A model generated the notes under the pieces. The model was not told the origin of the DNA and searched no databases. It worked only from the letters and a program-made list of their open reading frames with translations. Both the position numbers and the translations under genes were made by a program. A stretch of 33,948 bases of DNA from Folioceros fuciformis (taxonomy: Eukaryota), in the NCBI GenBank assembly GCA_049999805.1, contig JBNGIO010006220.1:1-33948 (forward strand), in the 5' to 3' direction. This document shows, one piece after another, positions 1 through 29,497 of this stretch (position 1 is its first letter; each line of letters opens with the position of its first letter).

Positions 1-1296
1 GCTTTCTTCTCCTCCTAGTTCGAGACCTATTCCAGCACCCCAAGGTCAGTCTTCCATGGCCGAGGAACCATTTCGGCTGGAAGCTGATTCTACTGAATAA
101 GCTACCGTTTTCAGGCCAGGTTCCGGCTGCTGATCCCATTGCTTCTTACCTCCTCTCTATCTTTCCCACTACTCATACTCCTCCCTTGGAGGCTGGCTCA
201 AACACCAACGGTGAACAGTTGCAGGGGAAGATTTAGCAGGAGGCCATCTAGCGAGGAAGAGGCAGCGTCCGCAGATCTTTGAAGATAAGACATCCTCTGA
301 AGTCTCAGGATAGTCTAAGAGGTGGTACATCCTTGTGAAGGTAGGGCCAGCTTATTGGTGGCAAGATGTGCTAGAAGTCTAAATAAGTGGCTGGTGACAA
401 CCGGCTAGGCTAGTGGTCCTATCAAAATAATATTTGTCAAGTTAGAGAGAGGTGAAGTCAGAGAGAGAGAGGCTCCTATAAGATCAGGTGAGCCTTTAGG
501 AGGAGGGAGTCACATTCACTTTGGGAGTCAGTCTGTCACTTCGTGAGCTCTTGGAGGTACTCTCTACATGAGCTCTTGTGGTCTGTCTCTGCTTGGGTTA
601 GGACCTACAGTGTGTTGCCGGCTGTGCAACGTATGGTAGGATCGCAAGCTGCGTGTTGCCGGTTGTACAGTGTCTGGTAGGATCACAAGGTGTAATGACC
701 AGGGTGAAGGGGCTTGCCCCCAGCTCTTAATTGTAAAGGATGTGTCTTTCTCTTGACCTGTCCACTCTTGTTCCCTGTTTGGACAAGTGCTGTAGGCCAG
801 TCATGTTTCATGGCGTCTGGTAAGGTTGTGGGGAGGAGATATCCGAGAGGGGAGTGTGTTCCCTTCTTTCTTTTCTTTGGGGTTAGTCCCGTGACTCTTG
901 CCGGGTAGGAGGAGTTAGTAGGGAAGTGTAGAAGGTAGTGGTGTCGTTGTTAGTTGCTGGTGTTGGTGCTGGAGTGAGAGAGCGAGTGAAGTGAGTGAGG
1001 GAAGTCACAGATCTGAAAGGTTAGGGTCGTTGTAGTGACTGGAGTGAGTTTGTGGGCACAGAGAGAGGTGCAGCTGACCGCTAGACAGCGAGGCCTGTCC
1101 TACGCCTGATCGGAGCTGGAGGAGAGCCCTCGAATCCATCATCGAGTCGATTGAGTCCGACCCTCCATCCATAGCAGCAAGGAACCCCATCGCTCCTTCG
1201 TAGGAATGGAACCCAATGTCTCAACGACAGTGGGATAAGTGTGGCCACTAAAGGTGAAACCCGTCGGCAATCAATGCGTGGGGTTTTGCCTCCACA
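1..1296 (+). mobile_element. LTR-like sequence (3' end of a 3' or solo LTR), probably beginning upstream of the window
   Basis: 679-1296 is homologous in inverted orientation to 4824-5452. Both copies end at the same terminus ...GGGGTTTTGCCTCCACA (CA end) with unrelated flanks. No PBS follows. Assigning 1-678 to the element is inference. Confidence 0.6.
612..689. repeat. Two-copy tandem repeat, 41-bp period
   Basis: gtgttgccggctgtgcaacgtatggtaggatcgcaag (612) versus gtgttgccggttgtacagtgtctggtaggatcacaag (653). Confidence 0.8.
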
Positions 1297-2100
1297 GAGG
1301 GCAAGGGGAATGCCTATGGATTGAAGGGCTAGGTGGTCACAACGTAGCCATGCACACTAATTCAGGACGAGAGAAATAACATAGGTTATGATTTTCATTT
1401 GGATTAGAACATAAGGTGGTAGAAAATTTTGAACCTAGGGATGCCGAATTTGTAGGTGCGCCCATGATAGGCGAGCTGTTTTTAGATTCTAGAAAGTTGC
1501 AGGAGTAATGGTGCTCCAAGCCCAAATGTATATGAGACCCGTGTTGTGTCTCTCTCTTTAGACAATTTCAAGTGTGAGCTCTCGTGTGTCGAATTTGTGC
1601 GCATTGTGGGTTGGAGACATCCGATTCATGATGGCCTGATTTGGTGTGTTGTCCTCTCGTCAAAAGAGGGCCGGGGAGATCCCTGGGTGGTTGAGAGCTA
1701 TGTGACCAAGCTCCTCAACTGGGGTGACTAGTGGAGAAGGGTGCTCAGCATCGACAAGGAGGGGAATTTTTGCAAGAGGCTGGGGGGGGAACGCGATTTC
1801 GCAAAACACCTAGAAAGCAAGGAGGAAACGTGGTTTGCGAAACTCTTGTGGAGCCGTCCAATTGATTATTTTTCCGTGTTTTTTTTCACAAAGAAAATAA
1901 TTCTGATTATGAGTGGAAGACTCCTCCCACTTACAATACAAAGGAAACCCCCTGCTAACGTATGTACATATATCAAGCACCAAAAGAGAGGGGGGAAGAC
2001 TAGCCTTAAGTCCAAAACTCAAGACAAGGCGCACATAGAGCACTCCCCTACACTATGGTACCCGAAGACTACCGAAACCACTTATACTCACACCTCGAAG

Positions 2101-4823
2101 TCACTCGAAGACCCTAAAGACTCCCCTTCCCCAGGGGCTCGAGTGAGTCCAATGTGTATCTTTCCCAGGCGATAGGAAGCCGGCTGTCCTCCAGTCTTTC
2201 CACTTAAATTGCTTCCGGTGTGATTGCTCCAAGGCTTCTGCTGCAATCAATAAATGTTCCCATATGCGCCATAACAAAGCTTGCGCTAAGGCCGACTCCT
2301 GTCCTCCATAGACCACCGCGGACCAATTGACCCAGAGATAGAAAAGACAAGAGGACCACAGTAAGCCCCACCATTAGGTTTCCAGGAGAGGTTTGCCTGA
2401 GGTTGCGTCCAGCCCAAATAAGGCTGATTGACTCGTGATCTTGAGGTTAGCACCAAGAAAAATTAAACGAAGCCACCTGCCCACCTCCCTCCAGATCTGA
2501 TGGGCAAAGCAATAGTGAAAGAACATGTGTTGACTCTTGTTCGGAGCCCCAGCGGTGCAAAATTGACACACATCCTCCCTCGTTGCAACGAAAAGCCCAT
2601 CCCAACGATTTGCATTAGGCAAACACGCTTGAAAGAAACACCAAACCGTAGACCTGACCTTGGGGGGGATTCCTGCAGACTTCCATAGGAGCTTGATGGC
2701 TTCCTTTTGACGCCGTCCAGCTAACTATAGTTGGGGAGCCATTGGTTGTCTTTGCTTGGTTTTCTGCGCTCGCACCAACCAGAGGAATAGGTCCGCCGTT
2801 GGGAAGTTGAAGGAAGATCGAGAGATAGCTTTCTTGCATCCCGGACGCTTGGGCTACCTGTAGAGATCTGGTCAGAAGGTCAGAGCCCAGTTTTCACCCA
2901 GTCGGAACCAGCACTGAACCTTTGCTTTATCGGAGGTTCGTGGCCCAATTGGGCGTTCGCCTGACGTGCACCATTGCCCTGCTCGAACGGACTTACAAAT
3001 GACAGTGATAGCCCATAGCTCCCCCCCTCGGCCTTCTCTGTCGTCCCTACCTTGAACTTCCAAAGAACCTTCAGGCGGCATGACCTTGAACGACTTCAAC
3101 GTCTCTTTGCCGTCAGCTCTCGCAACCCTGATCGCCCTATCTAGATCTAATGCTTCGTCTTGTTCATCCTCCTCCTCCAAGTCAACTCCCCTACTATCCA
3201 TGGAGTAAGCATACCACCCTTCCTCGCCTATGGTAGGTTGTTGCCTTAAGATCTGTTGCACCTTTTCCTCTAGCCCCTCGTGCAACCACAAGAATATGAG
3301 TCTGACGTGCTGGGCCCCTACTCCAAAATCTCTTCGGACCTCTTTCACCTCCTTCCAACGGGACTCTGATCTGTTCCATAAATGCCCAAGCTGAATAACA
3401 CCTTTGCAACAAGCCAGCCCGAAAATTTGTGACCGATATACCCTTGACCTGAACTCCTGTACCCATAACCTCGAGAAGCCCTGCAGAGGAATACCCAAAA
3501 CATCATCCACATGAGAGAAGGTGCCCGGGATAAGATATTGTTTGACCTCCAAGTAACTATTCCATATGGACTTAAAAAGCGGGGAGCATCCTGCAATATT
3601 AAGTATCGGTTTGTCAGCCAAAATGTTGTCTGTAGATCTCCTACCCCTAGGGACAGCTTGGGTGCAGTCCAAATGCTATGTTAGAAGACTCTTCGAAGGG
3701 TAGTATGCCGGATCCGCTGCTTTAACAACCCATTGAGCATACAAAACTTTCATCTTGGCAACTGGGTCCACCACCCCTAGGCCCCCCATGCCACGCGCTT
3801 GAATGATATGCTGCCAAGCCACTTTAGAACACCCAGCCATACTATCCCCCGCATGCCTCCACATGAAAGAGGTCAGCACCTGTTGTAAACGCTTCACCTC
3901 TGTCTTAGAAGGCGCCCACAAAAGCAAATAGTACCGTAATGAGGCAGTAAGGATATGGTTGATCACCACCAGCCTACCTGCCAAATTGAGCTCCAGCAAT
4001 TGCAGACTAGCTGCTTTGCGAATGAACTTGAGGCAGACGTACTTCCCAATCTCCCCATTCTCATCCCCCTCTTGGAAAGGAAGCCCCAAATACTTGTGGG
4101 TAGAGCCCAGTGTCACTTGCTGAATGTGGTTAATACATTGAGGGGGCTCCCCCTCCATGTGAAGACACATCATGCGTGTCTTGTTCCAATTCACCTTGCA
4201 GCCTGAAAGTTCACCAAAGACCTTGACCTGTTGGAACAACGCTTTCAATGGAGCCTCCTTTACCAAGGAAAAGAGGAGAGTATCATCTGCAAATGCAAAG
4301 ACCCTTAGCTGTGTTCCATCTGGGTTCCGAATACCCACCACTGCCAGGTCTTGCTTCACTGCTCTGAGAAAGAAGTCAGTGACGATAATAAATAAGAACG
4401 GAGCAAGGGGGCAACCCTGACGTACCGACCGAGAGATGCCAAAGCGCTCCGTAAAAGATCCATTAACAGACACCTTGGCACCTGCGTCTTCACACAAAAT
4501 GGCTATCCATTTGCAGAAGTTATTCCCGAACCCGAAACTACGCAGGCGTCGCCACAAGATGTGCCACTCAACTGAATCATACGCCTTGTAAAAATCAAGG
4601 GAAATGAAAACGGCAGCTTTCTTCTGTACCTGGGTGTTGTACTTAGCTTCCCTCAGGAGTAGGAAGTTGTCTAGGATGCAGTTATTTTGAATGAACCCTC
4701 GCTGCTCTTTCTCAATCCAATCATCAAGAAATGGAGTGATTCAGTTAGCCAACACCTTAGCAATTACCTTGTATGTGGTAGTTAGCAAGGTAATTGGGTG
4801 CCAATTGGAGATTGATAGACTGG
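2101..4823 (-). pseudogene. LINE ORF2, reverse transcriptase to C-terminal zinc finger, disrupted
   Basis: Track ORFs 3676-4557 (RT core and thumb), 2872-3672, 2374-2622 (CQFC...HMFFHYC..QIW) and 2101-2316. Premature stops include CGA>TGA at about 4741-4743 relative to the second copy. Confidence 0.92.
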
Positions 4824-5697
4824 TGTGGAGGCAAAACCCCGGGCACTGATTGCCGACGGGTTCCACCTTTAGTGGCCACACTTATCCCACTGTCGTTGAG
4901 ACATTGGGTTTCGTTCCCACGAAGGAGCGATGGGGTTCCTTGCTGCTGTGGATGGAGGGTCGGACTCAATTGACTCGATGATGGATTCGAGGGCTCCCCT
5001 CCAGCTCCGATCAGGCGTAGGACAAGCCTCGGTGTCCAGCAGTCAGCTGCACCTCTCTTGGTGCCCACAAACTCACTCCGGTCACTACAACGACCCTAAC
5101 CTCTCAGATCTGCGACTTCCCTCACTCACTTCACTCGCTCTCTCACTCCAGCACCAACACCAGCAACTAACCATGACACCACTATTTTCTACACTTCCCT
5201 ATTGACTCCTCCTACCCGGCAAGAGTCACTAGACGAAACCCAAAGAAGAGAAAGAAGGGAACACACTCTCCCCCCCACACCCCCTCGGATATCTCCTCCC
5301 CACAACCTTACCAGATGCCATGAAACATGGCCGGCCTACAGCACTTGTCCAAACAGGGAACAAGAGTGGACAGGTCGAGAGAAAGACACATCCTTTACAA
5401 TCAAGAGCTATGGGCAAACCCCTTCACCCTGGTCATTACACCTTGTGATCCTTGAAGGATCGGAAAGGGAGCCACATGATGAAGGAGAAGAAGAGAGGAG
5501 AGGAGAGGAAGAGAGGAGAAGAGGAGAAAGAGAGGTCTCACAATGTCTCTCCCATCTCTCTCATCTCTCTTGAAAAGGGAGCTCAAGAGGGTATTTATAT
5601 CCTCTAGAAAAGCTCCCAAGGAAGCTTCACAAGAAGATCACAGGAAGCTTCACAAGAAGATCACAAGAAGCTTCACAAGAAGCTCACAGGAAGCTAT
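4824..5697 (-). mobile_element. Truncated LTR inserted in LINE ORF2
   Basis: The LINE breaks after gatagactgg (4823), whereas the second copy continues gatagactggcgtctt at about 33905. The minus-strand terminus is ...CCTCCACA. A TATAAATACCCTC box lies on the minus strand at about 5587-5599. The right boundary is approximate. Confidence 0.75.
5621..5696. repeat. Short tandem array of 11-12-bp units (gaagcttcacaa / gaagatcacag)
   Basis: About 6-7 degenerate units read directly, next to the LTR/LINE junction. Confidence 0.8.
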
Positions 5698-5835
5698 GAC
5701 TTCCTCTTCTAGCAGATTCTTAAGTCTTCTACACTTCGACGCCGTCTTCGACCATCCCCCCAGACCCCTAACATTCCAGGAAATTATCCGCAAGTGAGAC
5801 CCCCTTTCGTAGTTTTTCAGAGTGTCGATACTCAT
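5698..5835 (-). pseudogene. LINE ORF2 N-terminus (start of the apurinic-type endonuclease), truncated
   Basis: MSIDTLKNYERGSHLRIISWNVRGLGGWSKTASKCRRLKNLL contains the canonical xSWNVRGL APE start. Confidence 0.88.
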
Positions 5836-8800
5836 TTAACGGGACTTGCTTGAGAGATTCCGGACAGCAAACAGCTTGGGCATCCTAGCCCCAGTCATTG
5901 ACTTAGGCCACGCCAGATGGTCCTTAGCTTTTTGCTCAAGGGACAATCTTTGAAGCCTTTCGAACTTGCGAATCGCAGGAGCGGTCCTCCAATCCTGACC
6001 AGCTAAGGGCCCCTTGACATCACTCACTGCCGTGTTTGGACCCCCAAACCTGTCTTTCGCCCAAGGCGCATCCATTACCTTTCTCATAACCGTTGGGTTG
6101 ATCGCAAAAAGTCTGCCTTTTCTCCTTGTTGTACCTTCTGCCTTCCTAAGCTCCTGACCACTAAGCAAGTGGTACACCTCCTGCCCTGGAGGAGGGTACA
6201 CATCTTGCGCCCCCTTAGCCTGCACCAAGTCCTTGTCCAAGGAGTTAGACGGAGAAGTGCTTCCTTCATCCCCGAAGAAAACGGCCTGCACTTCATGCTA
6301 GACAGTATCAGCATCCTCATCTTCCTCAGCATGAGGGGTGGAGAAAAAGTCCTCCTTGAAAGCGAACACCGCATTGTCTCTCATGATGGGGCTGGCACAT
6401 TTTGTGGGACTGGTACATTCCACCACGGGTTTACCGAGACACGTAGAATCACTTCTATCCATTCCAGACCCCTGTCTTGCTCCATATTTGTGGTGACCGT
6501 GGACTTCCAAAGAGGAGTTCCCCCCGCCAACAGAAGTCTTCCCGAGAGACCTGTGACTTCCCCTTGTCCCTTCCAGCACCTTAAGCTTTTTTCCTTCCAG
6601 GGAGGTGATGTCCAAGGCCATGCGTTGAACTACTTTGCTCAACGCCTTCCTTGCCTTGGCCACAACAATCTAATCTTGACGCTTATGGCCTGGAGACAAA
6701 TCTTCTGAGGCACGAGTCCTCTTCCCCACTACCATCTCCATGATCCTCTGCTCGCTTGTGGTCAAGACAGTTGCTGACACCGTTTTCCATGCAGTGGACA
6801 TGAAAGCCGATTCTGCGCCTGGCTCTATGGTTCCAGTAGGACCAGGGCCTGCCTCAAGCCCAGGAGGCTGATGACCCGGAGCTGACAAGTCGCGAAGTAC
6901 TGGGCACCCTGGCGTTGAAGCGAGAGATTGAGGCCCATGAAGAGCCTTGGAAGATTCCCTTCCCACTTCCTCCCCGGCAGCTTGAGCGGAAGTGACAGAT
7001 CCTGTCCCCTAGCTCGAGCCCGCAGAAGCCAACCTATCACAAAACGTCTGAGGAGGCGCTACCGTCAGCTCGTCTGGGACTGTGATGGAGCTTGGATTAG
7101 TTCCTGAGAGTGCGTTTAGCATGCCCTCGGCCCCTGTAGCCAGACGCATCGTTGCCAACTCAGCAACCCGAAGAACTTCAGATTGTCCGCTCCCAGCCTT
7201 AGAAACCGCCATTTGCTCAAAGACAGATTCACCCCCTTGACGACGCACACTCGCTGCCCCAAGCCCGGGGGGAGAAAGCGCCTTCTTACCAGTGGCAAGA
7301 GGGAAATCGACCAAACTCGCCTTCCCGTCTTGTGTGCCCCTTGCCTGGCAGCCTCTAACGTTGGAGACCACCTGCTCAACCGTCTCCCCTTGACCTACCC
7401 AACCATACTCTGGAGCACGATCCGCCCACCTCTCGCCATCCTCCCTAGCATTAGCTCCCACCTCAGGACTTGCCAGAAATGCTTGTGCGATGCGTGCTGC
7501 AAGGCAACAAGCAAAAAACCTTCCGATCTGAATCTTGTACAGGGGTGAGGAAGATTCGTCCTGCATCTTCGCCTTTGAGGAATCCGAAGCCGCCTCCTGG
7601 CCTTGGGACCAGTCGGCATGCTGGAACCCCAGTCTAGCTACCTCGCTCTCCTCAGGTATCTCGTCCCTCCACTTCAACGCAGTGGGAGGTTGGTGCTGCA
7701 CCTCCCCACACCTCAAGTTTTTCGCCACCAGAGAGTTTCTACTGTTGCGAGCTAGCGGTTTGTAGCTGTCAGATGCCTCGGAGGAAAAAAACTGCTGCCA
7801 TACACCTGGAGCACTCACCAGGTTGCCCCTCCCTTCCTCCGAGCTAGGATCTCGCATAGGCGGCACCACCGACACTTCCTCATCCTCCCCACCAAGCTGT
7901 TGGGACGGGAGTCCGAAACCCGCTTCCAGGAGACCAGGATGTTGAGCCATTACGGCCTGGGCCGTGGCCAAGAGATTCTCCTGAGACAGGGGACCGGACC
8001 TGTTCCCCCCAACCGGTGACATCCTGCTGCCTCTTGCCTGAGTAACCCGTCCCTTTGCTACTGAGTCACCCTGATCGCCTACGTTCTTCCTGCCCATCTC
8101 CACATGTCCCATCTTTAGCACATCTGCCGGAGCCTCCACATGCCGATCCATGACCTCCTCCCCAGGGTCAGACCAAGGGGGTGCCTTTTGGCAGGTAGCA
8201 GGCACCCAAGGAGCCGGACTCACTACGCCTTCTTGGACAGCCTCTGCCTGGAGAACTCCATCCCTGAGAGCCGACAACGCTCTCGCCTCACCCAGGTCTA
8301 CCTGTCGACGTCTGGCCACACCACTCGGATGCCTCACTAAGTCAGCTCTCTCTTCGGCAACAACCCCAGAACTCTCATGATCACTTGTCAAAAGGTTGCT
8401 GCCAGCCCTTGGGACACCCTCTACCCCAACCCAGCCTACACCTGTGACCAAGTTGGAGCAATTCTTTGGAACCTTGATAGAAAGGAGTGACGGTTCTACT
8501 TGCACTGACACTAAGGCCCCTCGGCAGGCTAGACCACCGCGACAACAACAATTCTCGCATCCGGGATCTCGTCCTCCCAAGCCATCACGACAGGAGATTC
8601 TTGCACCACTTTTCCACATCCCCCAACCTCGGTTCCTGGAGCAACCTCACCGGATCGTGCCTTCAAAAGCCAATCGTCCAGAGCCCCGGGAGGGGCTTGT
8701 TGAATCAGCCGGCTAGGAAGGCTTTCCAGACCACCCACACACTTCATCCCCAAGGCTTCTCCACCCTCTGTGCGCCGCTCTTCTTGCTCTGGATCCCAGC

Positions 8801-11800
8801 GCGGAGAAAGGGGACAAAGGAGACCTAGCCTCTTCACCTTGTGTGCAAACACTGTGGGAGGGAAGCCCCAGCGTGCCTCCAGAAAAAAAAAACGAGCTAG
8901 GAGCACTGCCCGAGCCCGCCCACACCTCCTTCTCCATGCCGAAAACCAAGGATCTTTTAGACCCGTCTGTCACCAATCCACCTGCTAGTAGCTTGTCCTG
9001 CGCCTCAGACCACGCCCTTTGCTCGCAAGCAGAGCCCACCGCCTGATCTCCCACCAAGGCGTCACTGTCTACTACTTCAGCGAATTCAATCTAGAATTTG
9101 CCGGTGGGACTGCCAGCCGAAAAAACTGCCTCTCCCTGCAAGCATTCTGTCTGGAGTGCTTCGTCGGTGAATACCAACTGGTCTGCCACAACCCCAACTG
9201 ATCACACCCTGCAGCATTCCCAAAGAGGATTCGCGCTTCCGACCTGGCTTGAGGATCCGGCACAACTCCTCCTTGGGCTCTTCCATTATGATGTCCACCC
9301 GATCCCTGACATACCCCGCCCTGATCCCGACCCGCTTCGGGGGTCGTGGAGGCTGCAACTTGCAAGCAATCCTTAGCACAATCCACCGCGTCGTCTTGAC
9401 CTCGTAGAGAGCCCAATCCCGTGCATGCATCGACACACTTAGGAAGCGATGCGAGGAGCTCAGTCTCAGCGCTCAGACACACAGGCGTTCGCACAACTTG
9501 ACTAGGCTGCTCTACAGCATTGGCCCCAACATTTGGATGGACCGCCACCGTGCCCCATCCTTCCCCTTTGCATTGCTCTCCCTTCCCGGTCAGTGTCGTA
9601 GGGAAGGGTTGGAGCCGGTATCCGATCAGCTCCTCTCCAGGCTGGAAAGCGATATCGCTGGAGAACTCCCCAACTTGACACTCTCCCAGATGTCTCCTGG
9701 GAGCCCTGTTGTAAACGCCAGGATTGCAAGGCCTCTTGCCTGACCACTCCTTCATCACAAATGGGCTCCACCTCCTGCATCTCCCGAGCAGAAGGTTCAT
9801 CCTCCTCCATTGCCGAGATAAAACTAGTACATGGTCCCAGCAATGAGTAGCCAGCATGCTGTGCTTCTAGAGGTTGGGTGGTGGAAATCCCCAGGGCAGA
9901 ATTCCCTGCGCTGCCCCCCACCTCAAACGACGGCCCGGTGGCTCCTTCCCAAGGCCCCTTCCCATTAACTGGCACATCGTCTAGTGGAGGGCACACCCCA
10001 CCTTGCTGAGCCAAGGGAGCAGCCCTACCCCCTGGACCTACATACTTATCAGGTTGTCTTTCAACTCCTGACCCCTGCTGACTGCCTGGGAAAATCCCGT
10101 CGTCCACCGCATCCCCCAGATGTGGCACTAGGTTATGCTTCTCCAACCTAGCAAAGAAACTATGGAGCTTCCCTGCCTTGAGATTCTGAAAATTCCTCTG
10201 CCGCTCCCCATGAGAGGCTGACCAAGTTGTCTACCTCTGTCTTTGGCTCCCCGATGTGTGAGTTTGTCCCAACGCCCTCTGTAAGACCGTCTTAATTATC
10301 CCACCCTGTAATTTTTCTCCCGATAGTGTAGCTCGGGATTCAACCCCTACAGGGCTTGCTTCCTGAAGGGTAGTAAAGGAAGCCTGCTGTGTTGCGGGGT
10401 TGTTGAGATGATGAGCACTTCCCCTTTGATGAGTACCCCCGATAGTACCCTTGCCTTCTATTGCCAGACCTTTAAAACCTTTTGCTAGTGACACACTACC
10501 TACGTCCACACTGTTGGAGTCCTCTTCCATAGGCACCGTATCCTCAGCCACCATATCCTCTGCCCATCTTAGCTCCCAACTGCCAGGGAGTTTGATCGAT
10601 ATCGAGGCATGGAGTACCCCAAGAAAACCAAGATGGGCCTTGAAAACCACTCTAGAAGCGAGAGTCACCCTACCTTTGCCAAATTTCGCATCCTTGATAT
10701 AAGCCAGCAACGGAGGCTCCCCCATCCACTGCGAAACCTTGAAGTACCGGATTTGACATTCATCCTTCAGCTCAATTAAGGTATTCACGAATACGATAGA
10801 GGAGCTATCCTCCAGTCTGTGACTATGTCGTGCCTCTTGCAAGATCATGCTAACAGCTTGCTCATCAAACCCTAGACCCGCCTGCAGCAAGCCCTTGACT
10901 TTTAATCTGACTGTAGACCAGAGCCCAAAGGGCTGGCCCCCAGTCGACCCTCCAGTCTGGAATGAGCGTGTAGGTAAGGCTCTGAGATCTCCCCCCTTCG
11001 GCATCCAATAAAAGTATGTGTTATCCATTTTCTTCCTCAAGAGAACACACAACCTAGCCAGTGCACTGTGTACGCCCCCGCTCCCTGAGAAGAACACATC
11101 CTGAACTTTTTTTGCCCACAACTGCGTTCTAGGGCTAGTCCTCTAGGACTTCGTAGGGGCACCTTTGAAACCAGGTAGAGGGCCAGAATGTGCCTTCTCC
11201 GACTTCTCACCCCGACCTCCCAATCCAGCCCGTAAAGGACAAGCCTACTTCAGATGATTATGCAAGCCACACACACCGCACCAAATAGGAAGATCCGGGT
11301 AATCAAAAAGCTGTGTAAAACTCTTAGATGGGTCCTCCGGATCACGAACAACGACGCCTTCAGGCAGATCTTGAAGGCTGTCGACTCTTACTCCGAAACG
11401 GGGTGGTTTGTTGTTGTCCAAAAATCTAGAGTCCACCTTAGGGACCTCCACCACCCTGCCAATGGTCCCCAAATTGTGCAAACCAGTGGGACGAGGTGAA
11501 CCGGCAAAGCAGGAAGACCCACCCACAGGAAATGCCGCTTGATTTTAGACTGCATGATGGAATTCCCGGGGGACCAATCCTCCACCACCACCGGTACGAT
11601 TTTCGGACAGACAATGTTCTTTGTAGAAGAGCCTGAGCCCCAGCAGCCTCGTCACACTTAATCTGGAAAGAACCGTCTGCTTTCAAGAAAACATAAGCTG
11701 GAGGGTATCCCGTTACCCGAGCCACCCCCTCCTCTAGTTCTTCCACGGTAGGAGGACCTGCAGACATATGGCGCCCCACAACTGAGCTGGCAGAAAGCTT

Positions 11801-12157
11801 GTCCTCCTCTCTTTGAAAAAATCTCACCTCTGTGAGCACATCCGCTAGCGGACCCAACTTTAACCATGTACCCTCTTTTGTCGAGTCCGAGACATATGCT
11901 TGGGAGGGGCCCGGCTGTACCTCAGCCTGCGCAAAATCCACCTCAGGTGACCGTACCTGCGATTCTTTCTCTGCCTCGGCCTTTGTTCAGCTAGCATCAG
12001 AGGAATTAGCAACCTTCTCCCCCTCGTTTTGCCCCTGTGGCTTCTGTTTATCAGAATACATACCGACTATTGCTGCCCATGTGCTAGTTGTTGAGCTCCC
12101 TCGTGGGGGGCTCAGCGCCTCCATTGAGCCGCCTAGCTAGCTCCCTCTCGGCGCCAT
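5836..12157 (-). pseudogene. LINE ORF1 (gag-like), exceptionally long, disrupted by stops and frameshifts
   Basis: ATG at 12157 (MAPRGS). DUF4283-like stretch (SVVGRH..., VVEDWSPG, LWVGLPALPVHL) and zinc knuckle YPDLPIWCGVCGLHNHLK*ACP at about 11240-11300. Fragments ending at 11245, 10231, 9502, 8713, 7009, 6670, 6298 and 5836 all share one frame. Confidence 0.78.
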
Positions 12158-12262
12158 CACTAACCTCGAGCCCTGTAGATCAATCCTATGTATCAGTCCA
12201 GACAATTTAATGCTCATTATTTTTCCTTGTCCATTCCGCTGTCTAATCAAATCGTGTTCAAT

Positions 12263-12493
12263 CCTAAGGAGAGGTTTGTATGACCTGTGGAGGGGTCTGT
12301 GTGACTTGAGGAGGGGTCTATGTGACCCAAGAAAAGGTTTGTGTAGCCCAAGGTGGCGTTTATGTGACTTGAGGAGGGGCCTGTGTGGCCTAAGGTGAGG
12401 TCTGGGTGACTTGAGGAGAGGCTTGTGTGGCCCAAGGAGGGGTCTGTGTGACCCAAGGTGAGGCATGTGTGACCCAAGGAGAGGATTGTGTGG
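12263..12493. repeat. 21-bp minisatellite, 11 copies
   Basis: Consensus approximately cc(c/t)aaggaggggtctgtgtga. Contiguous units, no indels, no spacers. Confidence 0.95.
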
Positions 12494-12514
12494 GAATTTT
12501 GTTACATGCTAGAG

Positions 12515-13715
12515 TGTGAGTACCTGAGAACTTGGAGTGTTGATGAAGATTGGTAATAAATTGTGTAAAGGATCAATGTGGATCGGTGATGGAGGGAAGT
12601 GATGTGGTGTGTGACCCTAATGTGCATCTACCAGTGAGATTTGGGTGCAAAATTACATGAGTGTGGTTTGGTGTGCATGAGAATCAACATGCACAGGCCA
12701 TAGCTTCCTAACAAGTGTGGCAAGCAAACTCGTGCCATCCAAACGTTGCAACGTGCACGTGCGACATACAGGTGGGTCCCACCACGGTCACTAAATCCAC
12801 TATTGTGGTGGTTGAATCCACTATAGTGGCAGAACCAAGTCCGGTGGTGGTGGATTCAAGTATGTTGGTTCATTGTGTCTAGATAGGAGCTTATTGGTGG
12901 ATTCAAGTATGTTGGTTCATTGTGTCTAAATAGGAGCTTATTAAAGGAAGACCAGAATCCATACGTTTAGAATATCTTGACATAAATCATTTCCTTAGGA
13001 GCGAATCCTAGGACTACAACGACATAGAGGGTGAATGTGCACCTACTTGTGTCCTTAGACACAAAATATCACTCTACACAAGGCATACTCAAGACTGTCC
13101 TTGCCGCGACTTCCCAAATCTTGCCAACTTGCTGCTTTTCACGACAGTCGATAGGAGGTTGCTAGGGAGGTTGGAATAGATAATATGGTCATTGCATAGT
13201 CAAGACTACCAAGACTCTTAAGACTACCTCAACTACTATGCTCAAGCACAAGAAGGCAGGTAAGGCGAGTTCGCATCCATAGCTTTCAATTTGTCTTTTA
13301 GCATTGTGTGGATAATAGGTATTATTCCCTTTTATTCCATTAATATGGAAACTTAGTTATTACGAATAATAGATAGATTTAGGTAGCTAGAAAAAGGCTA
13401 GAACCCAACAAGTGTGAACAGTCTGGAAAAACCCTACAAAGGTACTAACTCCAGAAGGCAAGGTGCAAGGAAGTGAGTCTTTGAAGTTGCACCAGGAGAC
13501 TGCCACAGCTAGAGGAGAAAGATCTTGTACCCGTGTGTCGAGAATACACGTGTACAAGAAAATGTGTCTCGACACACGAGTGTCATTTTCGTGAGTTCAT
13601 TTTCGTGTGCCCCTCAAATTGGTGAGAAGGTGTGATTGACAAACTACTAGCTAGGGCGCGTACCCTGTGCTGGCCTAGTTGCTTACACTACAACTCTTGT
13701 GATTCCCTCTCATCA
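12515..13715. mobile_element. Probable solo LTR, 1201 bp
   Basis: Starts TGTGAG and ends CTCATCA (TG...CA, imperfect terminal inverted repeat). Perfect 5-bp direct repeat TAGAG at 12510-12514 and 13716-13720. No coding capacity. Confidence 0.65.
12849..12942. repeat. 47-bp tandem duplication
   Basis: ggtggattcaagtatgttggttcattgtgtcta(g/a)ataggagcttatt twice, one mismatch. Confidence 0.95.
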
Positions 13716-14973
13716 TAGAGGAAAACACTTCAGCAGTAGGTGCACCATCAGCACTATCCTAACCCATGAAGCCTCTTTGGGGTTGGACACCTTGCTATGC
13801 GACGGGTTCCTTTGATCCCGCAATTCATCCACATTCCACTTCCTAGTTGGCGATAGTGAGGGCACCCCAATACAGACTAATAACTCTACTGTTGTCATGG
13901 CCAAGGTTGGGTGGTTTGATTGTACACTAGGTTGCAGCCCTCATTATGGTGGCAATGAGGGAGCCAACATCACTTATAGTTGCAAGATGTAGACCTAACC
14001 CGTTCGAGTAATTCGAGGTCCGTTAGGAATATAAAATGTAGAAAGGAAAAAAAGAATTTTGCTCATTCCGGAAAACAGGTCCGGGTGCGATCCGAGGTCT
14101 ACCCCGGTATTTATTTTCGGACCAACACATGGCCACGTAATTGTGGAGATGACCTGCAGCCTTTTTGGTGCATGAACACTTCGATCGATTGCCTCCATCC
14201 TCATGCTGCAATTTACTACAACTAGCTACACTACCTTTATCTAGGAGTTGAAGTGCCCCTAGATGTGATATAGAAACAAAGCTAGCCTCAACAAAGAGGA
14301 CTTCTCTTGCCAAAGGCACTTCACCTCATGCCATAGTCTCTTGGGTTACTATTGGGCCCCAATCTCCCAACGGTTCAGTAGGAGCATCATAATTAACCAA
14401 ATCAAATCTTTAAGTGCTAGGTCCATTAGAATAGACTTCATCTTCTTCTTTACATGTATAAATAAAAAAAGAGATTGAATATTCTAATATGTTAGTTGGA
14501 TAGTGCCAATTTGTTGGGGGGAATTGTATCGGCCGATTCTCACCGTACATGGGTACAAGTTGTGTACTTGTTGGATTCCTGTAACTGCAAAAATCTATAG
14601 CTATTTTAAGATTAATATTAAAGAAGTACAAATTTAAAGCTCACTAGTAATGTTACTCACAACTTTCCAATGATAGTAGCCGCGTATGTGACGGTCACAT
14701 GGAGTCCCCTCCTAGTGATGAAGATTCGTGGTCGACCCCCACCACTTGTGTAGACAAGGGGGGGTTGTGAGAAGGGATGGAATGGTCCGGTCGTCCGGGG
14801 CGTCGGAATCGTGGATATCCTAAGCCCCCCCCCACTGCACCTGGCACAAACGGATGGGGTCCAGTGACGAGCCGCCAGCAGACTGGAAGTAGGGTTTTAT
14901 TTTAGTCGCAAACGCAGCTCCTGAAGCACTTCCTAAACGGCGGGCCCGAACGTTGGACTCCAACCTGCTCCAG

Positions 14974-15031: not shown

Positions 15032-18000
15032 ATGGCGCCTGGGCTTTCTATGGAACAGGACTCCCAGGGCCAGGTCCAGGGCCAGGGCAAGGGTCAGGAC
15101 GCAACTCAGGCACTACCACATCCCGAGCAGTCCAATGGGGATTTGCAATTGGCGGAGGACGGCGATCTCAACGGTTCCAAGCGACACGCAGATGCAGAGC
15201 CCGACTGGACGCCTCCTGATTCCATCAGACCGCTGGGCCGAGCGGATTCGCTGGATGTGGAAGCCAGCCGGCTCAAAGGCTGGTCTCCCGAACGCAAAGT
15301 AAGTGAGTGAATGTGCATTGCAAGCGTGCGAGCCAGGCACGGGGTTTTTGTTTGGATGATGGGATTAGTAAAGTGAGTGAATGTCCGTTGCAAGCATCCA
15401 AGACAGGCACGGGGTTTCGGTTTGGGTGAGGGGATTAGTGTCTCATGGGCTCTGCTGTTGTGGGTGGAGGCAGACCTTGACGACTGCAGTCATTCTGCGG
15501 CTGGCGTACCAGAGCATCGGGGTGGTGTACGGAGATGTGGGGACGTCGCCTCTGTACGTCTACGAGACGGCGTTTCCGAACGGGCTCACCGACAGCGTTA
15601 AAGACAAGCAGAACCTGCTGGGGGCGCTCTCGCTTATCATTTACACCCTTACTCTCAGCCCGCTCTTCAAGTATGTCGCCATTGTCCTCAGGGCCAACGA
15701 CAATGGGAATGGTGAGATGCGTGTGGGTGAAATTTCTCCTTGCTGCGCATTGGCTGCGCGCGCTCAGGGCGGGTGATGAATTGTGGCCTGCGCGTGAGCG
15801 TGAGCGCTGCAGGTGGGACGTTTGCTCTTTACTCTCTCATTTGCCGTCACGCCAAGGTGGGGCTCGTGGGGAATCAGAATTACGAGGACCGGGAGCTGTC
15901 TACCTACAGCCTCACGATGCCTTCGCGGAGGAGGAAGATTGCGGGCTGGCTGAAGGATCGGCTGGAGGGCAGCTTGCTTCTCAAAAATGTGCTGCTGATC
16001 TTGGTCTGCATTGGGACGTCTCTCATCATCGGAGATGGTACCTTGACGCCCTCCATCTCAGGTTAGGGGGGCCTGCCCTACAACGTCGCACGCCACGCCG
16101 CGCCCCACCGCGCCCTCTTGCTTGAATCTGCTTTCTGCACGCCTACCTTGAACTAGCTTGTTGCTTCCGTTATTGCTGCTCACTCCAGATTGGTGATGGG
16201 CAACAGTCTTGTCGGCTGTATCCGGGCTGCAAATCAACAAGAGCACCAACGTGAGCCAGTGTATGTATGCACAAATTCACGGTGTTTGGAGCCAGGAGCG
16301 AGCTGATTGCTCTGATGATTAGCCACTTCCAGTCATGAATTTCGCACACGCAATTAATTGGGTTCCTTCACATTTGCAGCTGTGGTGGTGGGGATCACGG
16401 TGGTCATCCTCATCTTGCTTTTCGCGTTGCAACACAAGGGAACGGACAAAGTTGGCTTTCTCTTTGCGCCGGCCGTTTGTACTTGGTTTTTGACCAATTC
16501 CCTGATTGGCGTGTACAACATTGCGAGGCATGATCCCTCCATCCTCAAGGCCTTCAACCCTCAGTACATCTACTACTACTTCCGCAACAACAAAGGGGAT
16601 GGGTGGATACATCTGGGTGGAATCGTACTGGCCATTACAGGTCAGCTTTCCAACCGCATCTTTGTTTGGAATCTCTGTGTAACCTTTAGCTTGCACAAGG
16701 GCGTCAAGCCTGACTTTTTGTACTGAATGCGGAACATGCAGGAACGGAAGCTATGTTTGCCGACCTGGCCCACTTCTCTGTGCCCTCAATCCGAGTATGT
16801 TGCCTCATCTTGACTGCATATATTTGTGACTCAAGCAGTTGAATACTGTGCGAAGTAAGTTTCCTCTCATTGTGGAGCTGCTGTACGCAGATTGCTTTTG
16901 CTGGCTTCGTGTACCCGAGTCTCTTGCTCACTTACTGCGGCCAGGCTGCGTATCTCATGAAACACCCGGAAAACGTCGACAAGACATTCTACAAGTCGAT
17001 ACCATGTGAGTAGTCTTTTGAGCTGCAGCAAATCCAAACCAGTTGTAGGCAGTTGAAAGACAATCTTTCTGACAAGACTTTGGTCCTGTGGAAAACTGGC
17101 AGCTCCCGTGTACTGGCCCATGTTCGCTGTGGCAACAGCAGCTGCCATCATCGCCAGCCAGGCCATGATCTCCGCAGTCTACTCCATTCTCAGCCAGTCC
17201 ATGGCAATGAGCTGCTTCCCTCGGGTTAAGATAATCCACACATCAAAACGCTTCCACGGTCAAATCTACATCCCAGAGATCAACTGGTTGCTCATGATCC
17301 TCTGCATCACTATCACACTGGGGTTCCGGAGCACCACCACCATCGGCAACGCCTACGGCATCGCAGTGGTGGGGGTGTTTGTCATCACCACCATTCTGGT
17401 CACGCTCATCATGCTGCTGATATGGCAGGTGAACGTGCTGCTGGCCCTGCTTTTTCTCTTCGGGGTGGGCTCGGTAGAGCTCGTGTACCTATCGGCAGTG
17501 CTGTACAAGGTGCCACAGGGCGGTTGGGTGCCCTTGGTCTTCGCCGTGGTCTTCCTCACCGTCCAGTATTCATGGCAGTACGTACAGGTGCACAAGTACC
17601 GCTATGAGATGAACAACAAGTTGTCCCTGGACTGGGTGGTTGGGTTGGGATCCAACTTGGGGGTGGTGAGAGTGCCAGGCATCGCTCTCGTCTACACCGA
17701 GCTGGCGCAGGGCGTGCCTGCCATCTTCTCCCACCTCATCACCAACCTTCCTGCCATCCACTCCACCGTGGTGTTTGTGTGCATCAAGCACCTGCCGCTG
17801 GCGCACGTGCCGGAGGACGAGCGCATCCTCATCCGCCGGCTGGGCCCTAAGGAGTACCGGATGTATCGCTGTGCTGTGCGATATGGGTACGTGGATGCGG
17901 AAACCGAGACTGCCACGGATTTCGAGCGAAGATTGGTGCAGGGCCTGTCAGACTTTCTGCGTATGGAGGCACCAGAGTTGGATGTCGGATCAGGCCGGGC

Positions 18001-18376
18001 CAACGGAAAAGAGAAATTGCAGCTTGCTCTCATGAGCGAAACAGAATCCGCAGATAGCAGACGCAAAAATTCCATCAGTTCAACCTCGGACAGATTCGAC
18101 GGCATTGTGCCAGGCTCCAGGCAGGGGAGCGCTGACAGGTTGCCGGGGGTGGGTGTGGCGGGGGAGCTTGGCTTCCTGCAGCAGGCCAAGCAGGCAGGTG
18201 TGGTGTATCTGTTGGGGTCGGTGGATTTGCAGGCAGACCCGAATTCCAGCGTCTTGCGCAAGTTCATCATAGACTCTCTGTTCGCTTTCCTGAGAAGAAA
18301 TTCCCGGGACAGCAGCTTTACGCTCCATATTCCTCACAACAGGCTTTTACGAGTGGGTGTGACCAACCAGATCTGA
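15032..18376 (+). CDS. HAK: KT/HAK/KUP family potassium transporter, 8 exons, about 836 aa
   Basis: Exons 15032-15298, 15474-15711, 15813-16061, 16207-16260, 16380-16640, 16742-16794, 16891-17005, 17103-18376, all GT-AG and in frame (2511 nt). Motifs: [70 protein letters not shown]. Alternative start at 15050. Confidence 0.97.
15301..15440. repeat. 70-bp tandem duplication forming most of HAK intron 1
   Basis: aagtgagtgaatgt...caggcacggggttt...gggattagt at 15301 and 15371. Confidence 0.85.
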
Positions 18377-22295: not shown

Positions 22296-23363
22296 CCAAA
22301 TTCACGGCCCAAGAGTGTATAGTGCTTTTCCTGCCCGAAGGCTGGCAGTCTTTGCATTAATTACTGTTTTCTCAGCTGCGATGCTTTCGACATGTACAGT
22401 CTCACCACCAGAAGCAACTTTGCGGGCCTGGATTTCAGAGATTCCTTCAGAACTTCAACACTTGAGCACTTCCATTGCTGTGCATCCAGGAGTGCGATGT
22501 GGAGTGCGGCCAAACTGCCTGGCTGAGAGGCCTGGCCTCCCGCCTCGTCTCACACAGACAGTACCGTTATGTAACTGCCAGGAGCGGGAACAGGTTTTTG
22601 GTTTTTCCTTCCCGCCACCCAGGGAGGGCGGCAACGCAAAACTGCGCGGCGGCCGTGGGTTCTTGATCAAACCGCTCGCTCCCTCCCTCCCTGCCTCTCT
22701 CCCTCCTGGTTTTCTTGATTCGGTTTCAGGCATTCCCTGTCCCACGTGACGGCAAACTCGACTGGCAGTGGTGTCCCGGGGGTTTTGTGACGCGCCTGGA
22801 CCCTGGCTCCCGACCACCCTGATGACAAGCAATCGCGACAGGGCTGCGCGCAGGATGGGACCCTCCCCTCAACGTGCACCCCTGGGCCAGCCTAGCCAAA
22901 TGCTGTTTCCCTTCAACTTCCCGCCAGCTCGTGTTCCAGCAGGAAAGGCCTGCACCTAGTAGGTACTCCTCTGTCGGCTTTATGCCCGTGCGCACTTCCT
23001 GCTCTGACTACTGCTCTGGTATGATCTTGGATGTGATTATGCCGCACAATTTGGGAGTCCTGATTTAGCACCTACATTTCGAATGTTCGTGTCCAGGTCT
23101 GCGGACTCTGTCGCAATTTTCTCTGCTGCTTTCGCTTTTTACCAAGGAGCTTGTGGAGCGTTGCTGTAGTGCTGTCTGTGCTCTTGAAGGATCCGGAACT
23201 TCTAGTGGTGTTCTCAAGGACCTGCGCCGCTGCTCTGGAAAGTGTTTGTGAAGGGAATTGTCGTTATATTGAGAGTTGTTGAATTCGAAAGCTTGTTCAC
23301 ACTGTCTGCTGTCTGGAGAGGGTGCTTGGTTCGGTCAAGGAGCTTGTGTGCTTGAGGGCCGCC

Positions 23364-24266
23364 ATGGCCACCACAGCTTCTTCACATGCTGTGGTACTCA
23401 TCGTCATCTTCTCTTCACTGTTTCCCCCCAAAGCTATCGAGGCGGGAACTGCCCGTGTCTTTGGAGATCCTCATTTTGTGGGTTGGGATGGTGTGAATTT
23501 CGACTTTACTGGCAAGCCGGGGTCTACCTACTGCATGATCTCTGACCCTAAAATTCAAATCAACATGCATTTGGAAGGCCGCGTCGATTTTGATGTGCCC
23601 GAGGGCCAGAATGTGACCAGGACGTGGATCACTTCACTTGGCCTTCTCTTCGGATATCACAGGATTGCCTTGTTTGCACGTCGTGGAGCAGACTTGAGTC
23701 ACTCCACCAGTTTTCTTGAAAGGATACATGCGGACGGGGAGACACTCTATATGCCATTAGGGTCCACGTACATAGCCCCGAATGGAGAGTATGTCATCAG
23801 TTATGACAGCAGCGATGAAGATGGCCTCTCACCTTACGACACTTACACAGTAACTTGTAGGAATCTGGCCAAGATGCGCCTTACTATCAGGCCTGAGCTT
23901 CCTGATTTACGTCTCGCATCAGATGCATTTGTCCACTTTGCTGTGGAAATAATCCAAGCAGGACTTTCACCCTCCGTGCATGGGGTGTTAGGACAAACTC
24001 ACATGAATGCCCTCGGCCGTAGCAACAATGGTTCCTACAAGACAAAGTGGAACAACTTGCTGCTGGTGCAGCAAGTGGATTCACCTAACGGCGAAGGATA
24101 TTTGGATGGAACTGTACAGGATTATGAGGTCTCGGACCTGCTTCACTCTGACTGCCGCTTCTCCAGATTTGATGTGAATCCCGACTCTGAGCCAAGCGAG
24201 CCAAGGGTTGAAGTGTCCTCAGGCTACGTCCGCAAGTATTTCAGGGGCCACGGGGAGTTTTCTTGA
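23364..24266 (+). CDS. Secreted root cap / LEA-related family protein, intronless, 300 aa
   Basis: ATG in gccgccATGg context and a hydrophobic signal peptide. Motifs GDPHFVGWDGVNFDFTG, YCMISD..QINMH..G, TWITSLG, LSPSVHGVLGQT and DYEVSDLLHSDCRFSRF are typical of the plant Root_cap family. Confidence 0.9.
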   Translation: MATTASSHAVVLIVIFSSLFPPKAIEAGTARVFGDPHFVGWDGVNFDFTGKPGSTYCMISDPKIQINMHLEGRVDFDVPEGQNVTRTWITSLGLLFGYHRIALFARRGADLSHSTSFLERIHADGETLYMPLGSTYIAPNGEYVISYDSSDEDGLSPYDTYTVTCRNLAKMRLTIRPELPDLRLASDAFVHFAVEIIQAGLSPSVHGVLGQTHMNALGRSNNGSYKTKWNNLLLVQQVDSPNGEGYLDGTVQDYEVSDLLHSDCRFSRFDVNPDSEPSEPRVEVSSGYVRKYFRGHGEFS

Positions 24267-25586: not shown

Positions 25587-25677
25587 CGGACTCCGGAGAG
25601 CTGGATTTCTTCCAACTGGGCACCGATAGGCATTGCTCCAGTGCCCAGTTGGAACAAATCGAGCTCTTCCGAGTCCG
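25587..25677. ncRNA. Stem-loop, candidate MIRNA precursor
   Basis: Arms 25587-25623 and 25641-25677 pair at 33/37 positions by Watson-Crick pairing, with no bulges and a 17-nt loop. Confidence 0.5.
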
Positions 25678-27303: not shown

Positions 27304-29497
27304 ATGGCAACTAGAGGAATTGAGTTGTGGGTGGGGTTGTCCTTGGGCTTTCCCTTGTTGTTGATTGCATGGATCTACAACCATTCCCGCACCCTGAAAA
27401 TCAGGAGCAGAAACGCCCAAGTGCCTCCAGGACGATTCTGGCAACTGCCGGTTGTCGGGGACAGTATCCAATTTCTCAGCGGCTCATCAGATGACTTCAT
27501 GGTCCCTCGCCTAAAACAGTGAGGAGGATTTTCATACCTCGAGCTTCAGTCTTGAGTAGTAACCAGTGCTAGCCTCCCAGGTGCTCACTTTGCAAGAAAA
27601 TCGTGATACTTGCTGCGCTGCAGATATGGAAGAGTTTTCAGGACCCATTTGTTTGGGTGTCCAACAATTTGCACTACCACGCTTGAAGCAACAAGATTTG
27701 TGCTTCAGTCCAAGCTTTTCCGCTCAAGCCACACAGCCGCCACTTTGCAGATCGTCGGCAAAAGGTCTATCACTTCGACACACGGGGAGTTGCACGCTCT
27801 TTATCGGAGACTCATTCAAACTCCCATCATTTCGGATTCCCTGAAAGCCTTCACAACTGATATTGATCGAGTTGCAAGAGAGCAGATGCAGGGCTGGGGG
27901 CAGGAAGCAACCATCCGTATTGGAGAGGAGCTGCGAAAGGTGAGCGAACTGATGCTTACGAGCTTCAGATCCTTATCACTCCCCCATGCATGTCCCCGCC
28001 TTTGACAATACGTAACCCGTGGCTTCTTTCTGCAGTTCACTTTCCATGTCGCCTTGCTCTTCACCGTCCACAGCCTGAAAGACCATCCAGACATCGACAG
28101 GCTGAGGACGCTTTTCACAGCAATTGAGCAGGGCTTCTTGGCCGCTCCGATTAACCTTCTTGGGACAACCTTCAGCCGAGCCATTCAGGTGTGACTGCAA
28201 CAACGTACCCGATGCCATCTCTGTTATCCGCTTTCAACGTTGATACAGCTCCGACACGCTGTTCTTGTGCTCACGCTCCTTGGACCCCCAGGCACGCAAG
28301 GAGCTGGTGCAGTGTCTCGCCAAAGAGATCCAAAAGAGGCGGCACAAGGCTGGCAACGTTGTTGAACATCAGGACGTGCTTGACTCCTACTTACAGGCGG
28401 AGGGACCTGAAGGCAAGCTCACCGACGAGCAAGTCACGGACAACATAATAGGCATCTTGTTTGCAGCCCATGACACTTCAGCCACTACGCTCACCTGGGT
28501 TATCCACAACCTGCTGCTCTACCCTGAAGTTCTCCAACAAGTTCAGGTAGTCCTACATGCCTCTTCCCACATCCAAACCCTCAACTCCTGGTATTGCGAC
28601 ATCACAGAACGGCGGATCCAGACTGAATGCGCTAACTTGTGTAATCAGGAGGAGAACGATGCCGTTGCTCGACAAAGAGCGCACATTGACGACCCGATCT
28701 CTCCGGATGATCTTCGAAAACTGACCTACACAAGCAGGGTGGGTACTGCATGTGCCCGTCGTTCTCCTCAAAGATAGATACCACATCCACACCAACTCAG
28801 GCTGTTCCTCACTACCAACACGTACGTGATCACAGGTTATCCAGGAGACTTTCAGAAAAACGAACATTGCGTCTTTCATCATGAGAGAGGCAACGGAGGA
28901 TGTCGTTTTTGACGGTAGGTACAATCCTGAAGTGCCTTCCAATGCAGTGCACCAACAGCAGTTACGACCAACGGGCCTTGAAACGTGCAGGAGTCCTATT
29001 TCCCAAGGGCTGGAAAGTGCTCGCCTGGAACAAATACGTGCATCTGGACCCTGAACGATTCCCGGATCCCCATAAGTTCGATCCTTCCAGATTTGAGGTG
29101 AGCAATCCAGCCTAGATTGATGGGTTGCGAGACAGCATTGTCCTTCACATTATACTGTGCACCTGGTTTCGGCAGAACGTACCCAAACCCAACAGCTTCA
29201 CACCATTTGGAAATGGGCCTAGGGCGTGCCCAGGAAGCGAGCTGGCGAAGCAGGAGATGTTGCTCTTCCTCCATCGCTTTGTGACAAATTACAAGTGAGT
29301 GCACCAGGAGATTGTCGGGCGTCGTTCATACTTGGCCAAACAACGGGGAGTAGCTTAACAGCTGTTCTAAGCTTCTTCTCTTGTGTTGACACAGTTTCAA
29401 GCCCAGCGGGGTGCTGGATCACGCCATACGTTATTGGCCAATGCCCAAACTAAAATCAGGCTTGCCGTTGATTGTCACCCCAAGATCTACCCTTTGA
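27304..29497 (+). CDS. Cytochrome P450, CYP85 clan (CYP707A-like motifs), 9 exons, about 478 aa
   Basis: Exons 27304-27518, 27624-27939, 28036-28188, 28292-28546, 28649-28738, 28836-28914, 28991-29097, 29176-29294, 29395-29497 (1437 nt). N-terminal anchor, PPG hinge, YGRVFRTHLFGCPT, I-helix AAHDTS, ExxR (ETFR), FDPSRF and heme motif PFGNGPRACPG. Confidence 0.96.

Follow-up and report, generated by a model that had tools for sequence, protein, structure and literature searches.

In passages of PMC5203782, LINE-1 (L1, a long interspersed nuclear element, LINE) is viewed as a compact two-gene machine of 6–8 kb, with a first open reading frame (ORF1) of ~1 kb and a second (ORF2) of ~3.8 kb, and the combination of DUF4283 with zf-CCHC_4 is described as the dominant form of the plant ORF1 protein (ORF1p). 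For the poplar L1 Celine, an excerpt of PMC11288735 gives a total length of 6,114 bp, a 1,617-bp ORF1 with DUF4283, a 3,765-bp ORF2 and target-site duplications (TSDs) of 10–30 bp. Here, we describe a degenerate L1 on the minus strand of a 33,948-nucleotide stretch of DNA from Folioceros fuciformis (assembly GCA_049999805.1, contig JBNGIO010006220.1, positions 1 to 33,948 of the forward strand; the window). The element has in common with plant L1s such as Celine a poly(A) tail, a TSD of at least 10 bp, DUF4283-like sequence followed by a CCHC knuckle (both sub-threshold here), a putative start of an APE-type endonuclease, RVT_1 and zf-RVT. However, the 1,617 bp of the Celine ORF1 compare with 6.3 kb from the ORF1 ATG to the ORF2 ATG in the present element. 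The locus is probably a dead copy of a plant L1 from a lineage in which ~5.3 kb of genuine coding sequence for protein separate the ORF1 module from ORF2. A search of full-text literature, with subscription journals and Repbase outside its scope, returned no description of a plant L1 with an ORF1 region so large; the apparent novelty is a lineage of plant L1s whose large additional coding region holds at least one orphan conserved domain, as seen in a dead copy.

The limits of the element were placed from a perfect direct repeat of 11 bp (ATTATTTTTCC on the plus strand) present at both ends, and from an A8 tract of the minus strand that ends 3 nt from the low-coordinate copy of the repeat (Table 1); because of these two features, 1876–12215 was taken as a single insertion with a TSD. 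As a chance control, an exact 11-mer was common to 298 of 20,000 random pairs of sequence windows of equal sizes. Self-comparison of the window found no direct terminal repeats of the long terminal repeat (LTR) kind. Pfam searches matched RVT_1 (PF00078; E 2.2e-29, 103.1 bits) and zf-RVT (PF13966; E 7.7e-8, 33.3 bits, cut-off 27.5), and three features that mark a plant-type element of the L1 clade were found: a LINE-type reverse transcriptase (RT), zf-RVT, and a poly(A) tail and TSD without LTRs. An earlier model-made annotation of positions 5836–12157 (the sequence-only reading) had called a TSD-bounded L1 element, and this is borne out by the 11-bp TSD, the A8 tail and the RT and zf-RVT matches, with the 5.3 kb lying inside the bounds. 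In 5' to 3' order on the minus strand, the element consists of a short leader, the ATG at 12157, the ~0.9-kb ORF1 module, ~5.3 kb of stop-poor sequence, a TAA–ATG junction and what looks like the endonuclease start. The length of ~10.7 kb that the same annotation had proposed for an intact element is reasonable, as 10,340 bp less the ~873 bp of a foreign repeat plus ~1.3 kb of endonuclease and linker now lost, a figure estimated for the loss from the usual ORF2 layout rather than measured. The present copy is inactive: its reading path is interrupted by 10 premature stops and changes frame at least 3 times, and an unrelated high-copy repeat has taken the place of the endonuclease body.

The first ~0.9 kb of the reading path, previously assigned to the usual plant L1 ORF1 module, contains collinear matches to DUF4283 (PF14111; E 0.0013, 18.9 bits, below the cut-off of 27.2, at profile positions 54–89 of 124 in a frame-shifted piece) and to zf-CCHC_4 (PF14392; E 0.0087, 16.1 bits, below the cut-off of 27). 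The knuckle itself is visible in the translation as a C-x2-C-x4-H-x4-C string, interrupted by a TAG at 11247. Further stops lie at 12139 and 11989, and the module contains at least one frameshift, or two if the weak DUF4283 match, which falls in the third frame, marks the true frame.

The minimum-cost reading path on the minus strand extends from ATG 12157 to TAA 5838–5836 over ~2,107 codons, at the price of 10 internal stops (8 TAG and 2 TGA) and 3 frameshifts, confirming both the frame of about 2100 codons and the predominance of TAG among its interruptions that had been read from the letters. Translation of 12159–5701 shows that a single minus-strand frame is stop-poor from 11544 to 5838. 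When stops were counted per 600 nt from 11559 to 5560, this frame contained 0–3 in nine of ten bins and 7 in the bin 9759–9160, where the neighbouring frame is stop-free and holds an ORF at 9866–9072; the remaining five frames mostly contained 3–16 stops per bin. That the frame is open by chance, in non-coding DNA rich in G+C, is favoured by the G+C content of 0.55–0.58 over the segment, which lengthens random ORFs, and by a plus strand that is also open for 233 codons at 6007–6708, yet this explanation is effectively refuted. In none of 300 dinucleotide shuffles was an ORF as long, or a stop count as low, as in the segment: the longest uninterrupted run spans 545 codons (shuffle maximum 324), and the fewest stops in any frame over 5839–11544 are 16 (shuffle minimum 44). 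The homology of one block to a protein record and a protein repeat that appears in one frame only, both presented below, likewise speak against chance. As stop depletion is frame-specific and exceeds that of all 300 shuffles, the description of the sequence beyond the module as coding-like holds.

The composition of the segment was compared with that of the RT. The frequency of G at codon position 1 is 0.34–0.44 in every part of the segment versus 0.31 in the RT, and G, S, P, E, Q, K, R, A and D make up 60–67% of the predicted product versus 49% of the RT. The observed/expected CpG ratio of 0.54 equals that of the ORF2 part. The share of TAG among the internal stops (8 of 10) exceeds the 0.50 expected from the codon content under equally likely transitions with P = 0.056, which is only suggestive; decay of CAG to TAG, as had been proposed, is thus plausible and not demonstrated.

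The sequence-only reading had pointed to three globular-looking blocks between low-complexity linkers, and the first of these (~11120–10550; block 1) now has independent support. The frame-0 read-through of 11142–7543, a single frame in which stops were written as X and which is off the inferred frame over ~9866–8517, was searched with phmmer against 1,835,955,588 representative proteins, and a single match, P0002, was obtained (E 2.8e-17). P0002 and block 1 align with 37% identity (58/158 identities, 4 gap positions; BLASTP E 1e-26) and a score of 239, versus a maximum of 51 in 300 shuffles. A match of 37% identity with so few gaps lies beyond what unconstrained DNA would retain, and block 1 is therefore taken to be real; to judge from this alignment, it is conserved at the protein level and looks like a conserved folded domain. 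P0002 is an unnamed 299-aa ORF of a 1,062-nt Logan contig and the sole member of its cluster. It starts with a Met 14 residues into the aligned block, and both proteins continue after the block into a low-complexity tail; the two tails are unrelated in sequence. Neither block 1 nor P0002 matches any Pfam family. A word-index protein search with the 303-aa block, restricted to candidates of near lengths, found nothing, and the same kind of search with profile A1 found P0002 alone. ESM Atlas gave no usable lead on block 1 (recognition 1433, first matches of 0.90 to unnamed clusters), and a profile search of the six-frame translation of the window detected no other occurrence of block 1 or of the repeat module described next.

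A ~120-aa module occurs twice in the segment, the 146-aa ORF at 8532–8969 being a diverged paralogue of 7582–8025. The two copies align by BLASTP with E 3e-7 and 27% identity; the pair scores 88 compared with a maximum of 68 in 1000 shuffles and with 31 and 40 when the 8532–8969 DNA is read in its two remaining frames, and the motifs W.DEIP and LEA.FG.P are kept in both. An internal duplication of this age in which motifs have been kept points to translated sequence. The third of the proposed blocks (8900–8530) is thus supported, as part of a repeat module, and differs from the original description in that its frame is not the main one. This shift was examined in contigs from sequencing runs of two samples (X1 and X2 are two DNA runs of one sample, X3 is from the same sample, and X4, possibly an RNA run, is from a second sample with the same species label). 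Contigs of other copies contain one extra C after 8516 (two contigs in X1, one in X2 and one in X4), at a site that is a run of four in the present copy. As the extra C brings the shifted ORF into one frame with the main-frame ORF downstream of it, the frameshift is a lesion of the present copy, and the 545-codon ORF is consequently off the original frame over its first 43 residues. The second proposed block (9440–9090) is supported by its open frame and by nothing independent of it.

Residues 3–42 of the 8532–8969 ORF (8844–8963, minus strand) resemble NDUFB3 (PDB 5xtc_Z, E 0.0044) over a 40-residue stretch with the pattern GL[KR]DPW…AWR…FF…WGF of mammalian NDUFB3. The similarity was judged to be due to chance, because no Pfam family (NDUF_B12 included) was matched at E values up to 0.1 and because the paralogous module does not share it.

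At its 3' end, the long frame terminates in a TAA (5838–5836) that directly abuts an ATG (5835–5833), followed by MSIDTLKNYERGSHLRIISWNVRGLGG…, which resembles the first strand of an APE-type endonuclease, and reading into ISWNVRGLGG. In SART1 of Bombyx, a member of the R1 clade, ORF1 and ORF2 are reportedly joined by a stop–start coupled junction. The ORF2 ATG here likewise abuts the upstream stop, in an element of a different clade, and coupling is proposed from the sequence alone. The 46 codons of ORF2 that remain before the foreign repeat (5835–5697) match no Pfam family, and the sole PDB match of a 45-mer from the ORF2 start was to the N-terminal strand of APEX1 (2o3c_A), which is not significant (E 1.4). 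Below 5697, four X4 contigs read TWDVVCLQEH in the frame of the ORF2 start, which we take to be an endonuclease-type motif that follows the first strand. As these contigs run on into this motif, the junction appears to be joined to an intact endonuclease in other copies.

The knuckle, the extra segment and the endonuclease start share one strand and one frame. This bears on the proposal that an unrelated element, inserted once or more between ORF1 and ORF2, or else a chimera made in assembly, accounts for the segment. In favour of this proposal, one clear foreign insertion or replacement does exist in the L1 itself, at 4824–5696. However, strand and frame are equal on both sides of the segment, there are no terminal repeats and no second TSD around it, and its plus-strand ORFs have no Pfam match. 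In addition, zero-difference contigs from X1 and X2 cover parts of 6232–12639 (6232–6668, 6949–7713, 8191–10039 and 11893–12639). Together, these observations leave nested insertion or chimerism very improbable.

The contigs further show that the segment is not private to the present copy. Diverged relatives were found in X1 (441 nt at 8211–8650 with 80 differences; 476 nt at 10509–10984 with 28 differences), in X2 (381 nt at 11444–11819 with 58 differences and 3 gaps) and in X4 (1379 nt over 8019–9022 and 679 nt over 9724–10407, at ~85% identity), and a copy-specific nested insertion, the outcome that would have overturned the idea of a LINE family, is not borne out. The contigs also include in-frame length variants (84, 132 and 159 nt from 10823; 181 + 143 = 324 nt in one), which were not counted as evidence, the sequence between contig pieces being marked as not known. 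Summed word depth in X1, which does not equal copy number, is 164–256 over 11209–12142, 108–155 over block 1, 44–87 over 7006–10274, 175–236 over 6072–7005 and 800–1300 over ORF2; contigs were matched to a limit of 80%.

These depths are relevant to a further explanation, in which the 5.3 kb were gained once by a subfamily (through template switching, transduction or capture of another element's gene) and ride along with no function in retrotransposition, their openness reflecting a recent origin. In its favour, the depth over 7006–10274 is three to five times below that of the ORF1 module and of 6072–7005, most of the segment has no homologue, and its composition is of low complexity. Against this, block 1 is kept at 37% identity in a distant record, and the internal duplicates keep W.DEIP at 27–29% identity; as the duplicates have diverged and their motifs have been kept, the sequence is old and still coding-like. 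Moreover, the frame is common to the knuckle and ORF2, the stop–start junction is exact, and no donor gene for the segment was found among 1.84 billion proteins with the single-frame read-through as query. A passenger origin is therefore considered improbable, though less so than nested insertion.

The usual ORF1 size of several hundred residues (~1–1.6 kb) is far exceeded by a frame of ~2,107 codons, about four times as large as is usual, and would apply here only if the TAG at 11145 were a true stop. Such a layout, which refines the coding interpretation rather than replacing it, has three ORFs: a normal ORF1 of ~330 codons (from 12157 or 12124 to 11145) that ends at TAG 11147–11145, a separate ORF of ~1,730 codons from ATG 11028 (MDNTYFYW…) to the TAA–ATG junction, and ORF2. 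The TAG sits 33 codons past the knuckle, and plant ORF1 proteins usually end about that far past it. ATG 11028 follows 39 codons after the TAG, a few residues ahead of block 1, and the Met of P0002 lies 14 residues into that block. Around 11145, nearly all other contigs disagree with the window at 11135 and 11179, and no difference at the stop is among the 40 of 4,260 listed, a weak hint. Conversely, the frame is open between 11145 and 11028, and the Met start of P0002 could be an artefact of how ORFs were called on its 1,062-nt contig. The TAG inside the knuckle is, in addition, clearly a mutation, showing that TAGs here do arise by decay. We regard the three-ORF layout as possible and as a real competitor of a single frame of ~2,100 codons; in either case, the element carries ~5.3 kb of extra coding sequence. 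A more specific version of the three-ORF layout, in which a third LINE protein of ~1,700 residues stands between ORF1 and ORF2, with the orphan domain and duplicated modules set in disorder and with UAA–AUG coupling to ORF2, is doubtful. If true, it would represent a new class of LINE accessory gene, whose product might act as a scaffold for the particle, say, or counter silencing.

Several observations weigh against the coding interpretation as a whole. The segment is readable in full in one copy only, and both the DUF4283 and the knuckle matches that anchor its 5' side fall under the Pfam cut-offs. Support from homology comes through P0002, a single record from a short contig, and the exhaustive search of the frame-0 read-through of 11142–7543 found nothing besides block 1; the true-frame pieces 9093–9866 and 8532–8969 were compared with Pfam and PDB only. 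AlphaFold2 models were unusable (predicted local distance difference test, pLDDT, of 35.6 for block 1 with P0002 and 32.8 for the repeat module pair), leaving folding unsupported for any part. The depth dip at 7006–10274 may mean that many relatives are without the middle of the segment or have diverged there beyond the 80% limit. Finally, no in-frame stop is among the 40 of 4,260 letter differences listed, so the view that the stops are private to the present copy is unsupported. Other searches were also negative: no Pfam family was matched in the extra 5.3 kb, PDB sequence searches gave no match for the 1200-aa read-through or the last 568 aa and chance-level rows only (E 0.46–0.71) for the 9093–9866 piece, the last 568 aa had no relative in the word-index protein search, and scans of metagenome contigs with profile A1 and with a piece spanning the ORF1 end and ORF2 start found no relative.

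If, as we favour, the lineage carries this coding sequence, its L1 RNA would have been ~10.7 kb long, and the extra segment would have been part of that RNA when the present copy inserted by target-primed reverse transcription. The long frame would be translated to its end, and ribosomes would then reinitiate on ORF2 at the UAA–AUG by termination–reinitiation coupling; the abutting UAA–AUG makes sense only if ribosomes reach that stop. The predicted polypeptide, mostly of low complexity with the orphan ~156-aa domain and the duplicated ~120-aa module, would extend or accompany ORF1p in the L1 ribonucleoprotein particle. Its most likely role, speculatively, is to serve as a scaffold, multivalent or disordered, on which particles assemble or host factors bind.

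For human L1, part of PMC10202459 reports that condensation of ORF1p is critical for retrotransposition, and part of PMC5203782 gives the size of ORF1p as ~40 kDa. The human and present ORF1 products are likewise RNA-binding first proteins, and the long extension here could aid particle assembly in a comparable way. In contrast, human ORF1p is of the Transposase_22 type rather than DUF4283 plus knuckle, and the product here would be about five times larger. Set against the two-gene view (as given in part of PMC5203782), 5 kb of extra coding sequence carried through retrotransposition, with a domain of no known family in it, would widen the coding repertoire of non-LTR elements, and the lineage would be a natural test of the roles of the ORF1-side protein in particle assembly, condensation and host interaction. 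Annotation pipelines that expect an ORF1 of ~1 kb would miss such elements or split them.

Table 1. Coordinates of the L1 element and its parts in the window
Feature	Position	Strand	Basis and remarks
Whole L1 insertion, degenerate	1876–12215	-	10,340 bp; TSD pair outside; RT and zf-RVT by Pfam; endonuclease start visible
5' TSD	12216–12226		ATTATTTTTCC as the + strand reads; sole shared word of at least 9 bases between 1700–1960 and 12080–12320
ORF1 module: N-terminal region, DUF4283-like domain, CCHC zinc knuckle	11146–12157	-	Sub-threshold Pfam matches, knuckle string and reading path
Extra coding-like segment, ~5.3 kb	5836–11145	-	Rich in G, S, A, P, E; ends at TAA 5838–5836; no known family
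Block 1, orphan conserved domain by homology, ~156 aa	10519–10986	-	Homologue P0002, E 2.8e-17
Repeat module copy 1	8532–8969	-	Not in the main frame but shifted; paralogue of copy 2 (BLASTP E 3e-7)
Repeat module copy 2	7582–8025	-	Main frame
ORF2 start: ATG 5835–5833 and first 46 codons of putative APE-type endonuclease (…LRIISWNVRGLGG…)	5697–5835	-	Translation
Foreign very high-copy repeat	4824–5696		Replaces rest of endonuclease and linker to RT; inverted copy at 679–1296
ORF2 remainder: RT 3676–4740, zf-RVT 2374–2724	2101–4826	-	Pfam
3' TSD	1865–1875		3 nt past the A8 tail (T run 1879–1886 on the + strand)

The L1 sequence breaks at 5696 and resumes at 4826, in the middle of the RT. The foreign repeat between these points has a summed word depth of 6.7e4–1.0e5, compared with 8–17 for single zero-difference contigs, and forms the second arm of an inverted repeat (679–1296 versus 5452–4824, 92% identity over 629 nt). 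The two repeat copies (1–1296 and 4824–5696) span X1 summed word depths of 5.7e4–1.4e5, and both carry short tandem arrays on the same side (531–689 and 5483–5695). Scanning the window for Rfam families and for tRNAs gave no match.

A second broken L1 copy lies on the same strand at 31745–33907 and is 89.7% identical to 2659–4826; it continues as normal RT exactly where the first copy breaks (4826). Toward the 3' end, its homology ends at 31745 inside zf-RVT (after …GIPPK), with unrelated sequence beyond. As this copy leaves the window in the RT, before ORF1, it gives no information on the extra segment.

In X3, contigs matching 1–14000 show mostly G>A (803 places) and C>T (370 places) differences from the window, as expected of a library made by bisulfite-type or enzymatic conversion, and methylation of the element could be read from this run. 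A 21-bp tandem array at 12263–12492 (11 units, 69% matches), which lies ~40 bp upstream of the 5' end of the L1, reads on the minus strand as an imperfect 7-residue peptide repeat (…LGSHRPL…). Host-gene-like ORFs were found on the plus strand at 17057–18373, 28244–28774, 23283–24263 and 30161–30655. The plus-strand matches near the L1 comprise an exon of a KUP/HAK potassium transporter (K_trans E 1.5e-57, K_trans_C E 5.9e-26), a cytochrome P450 fragment (E 7.4e-15) and weak matches to Root_cap (E 2.5e-5) and Rep_fac-A_C (E 4.9e-5), both below their cut-offs. With such ORFs nearby, the L1 sits in a genic region of a land plant. A palindrome of 91 nt at 25587–25677 matches its own reverse complement at 80%.

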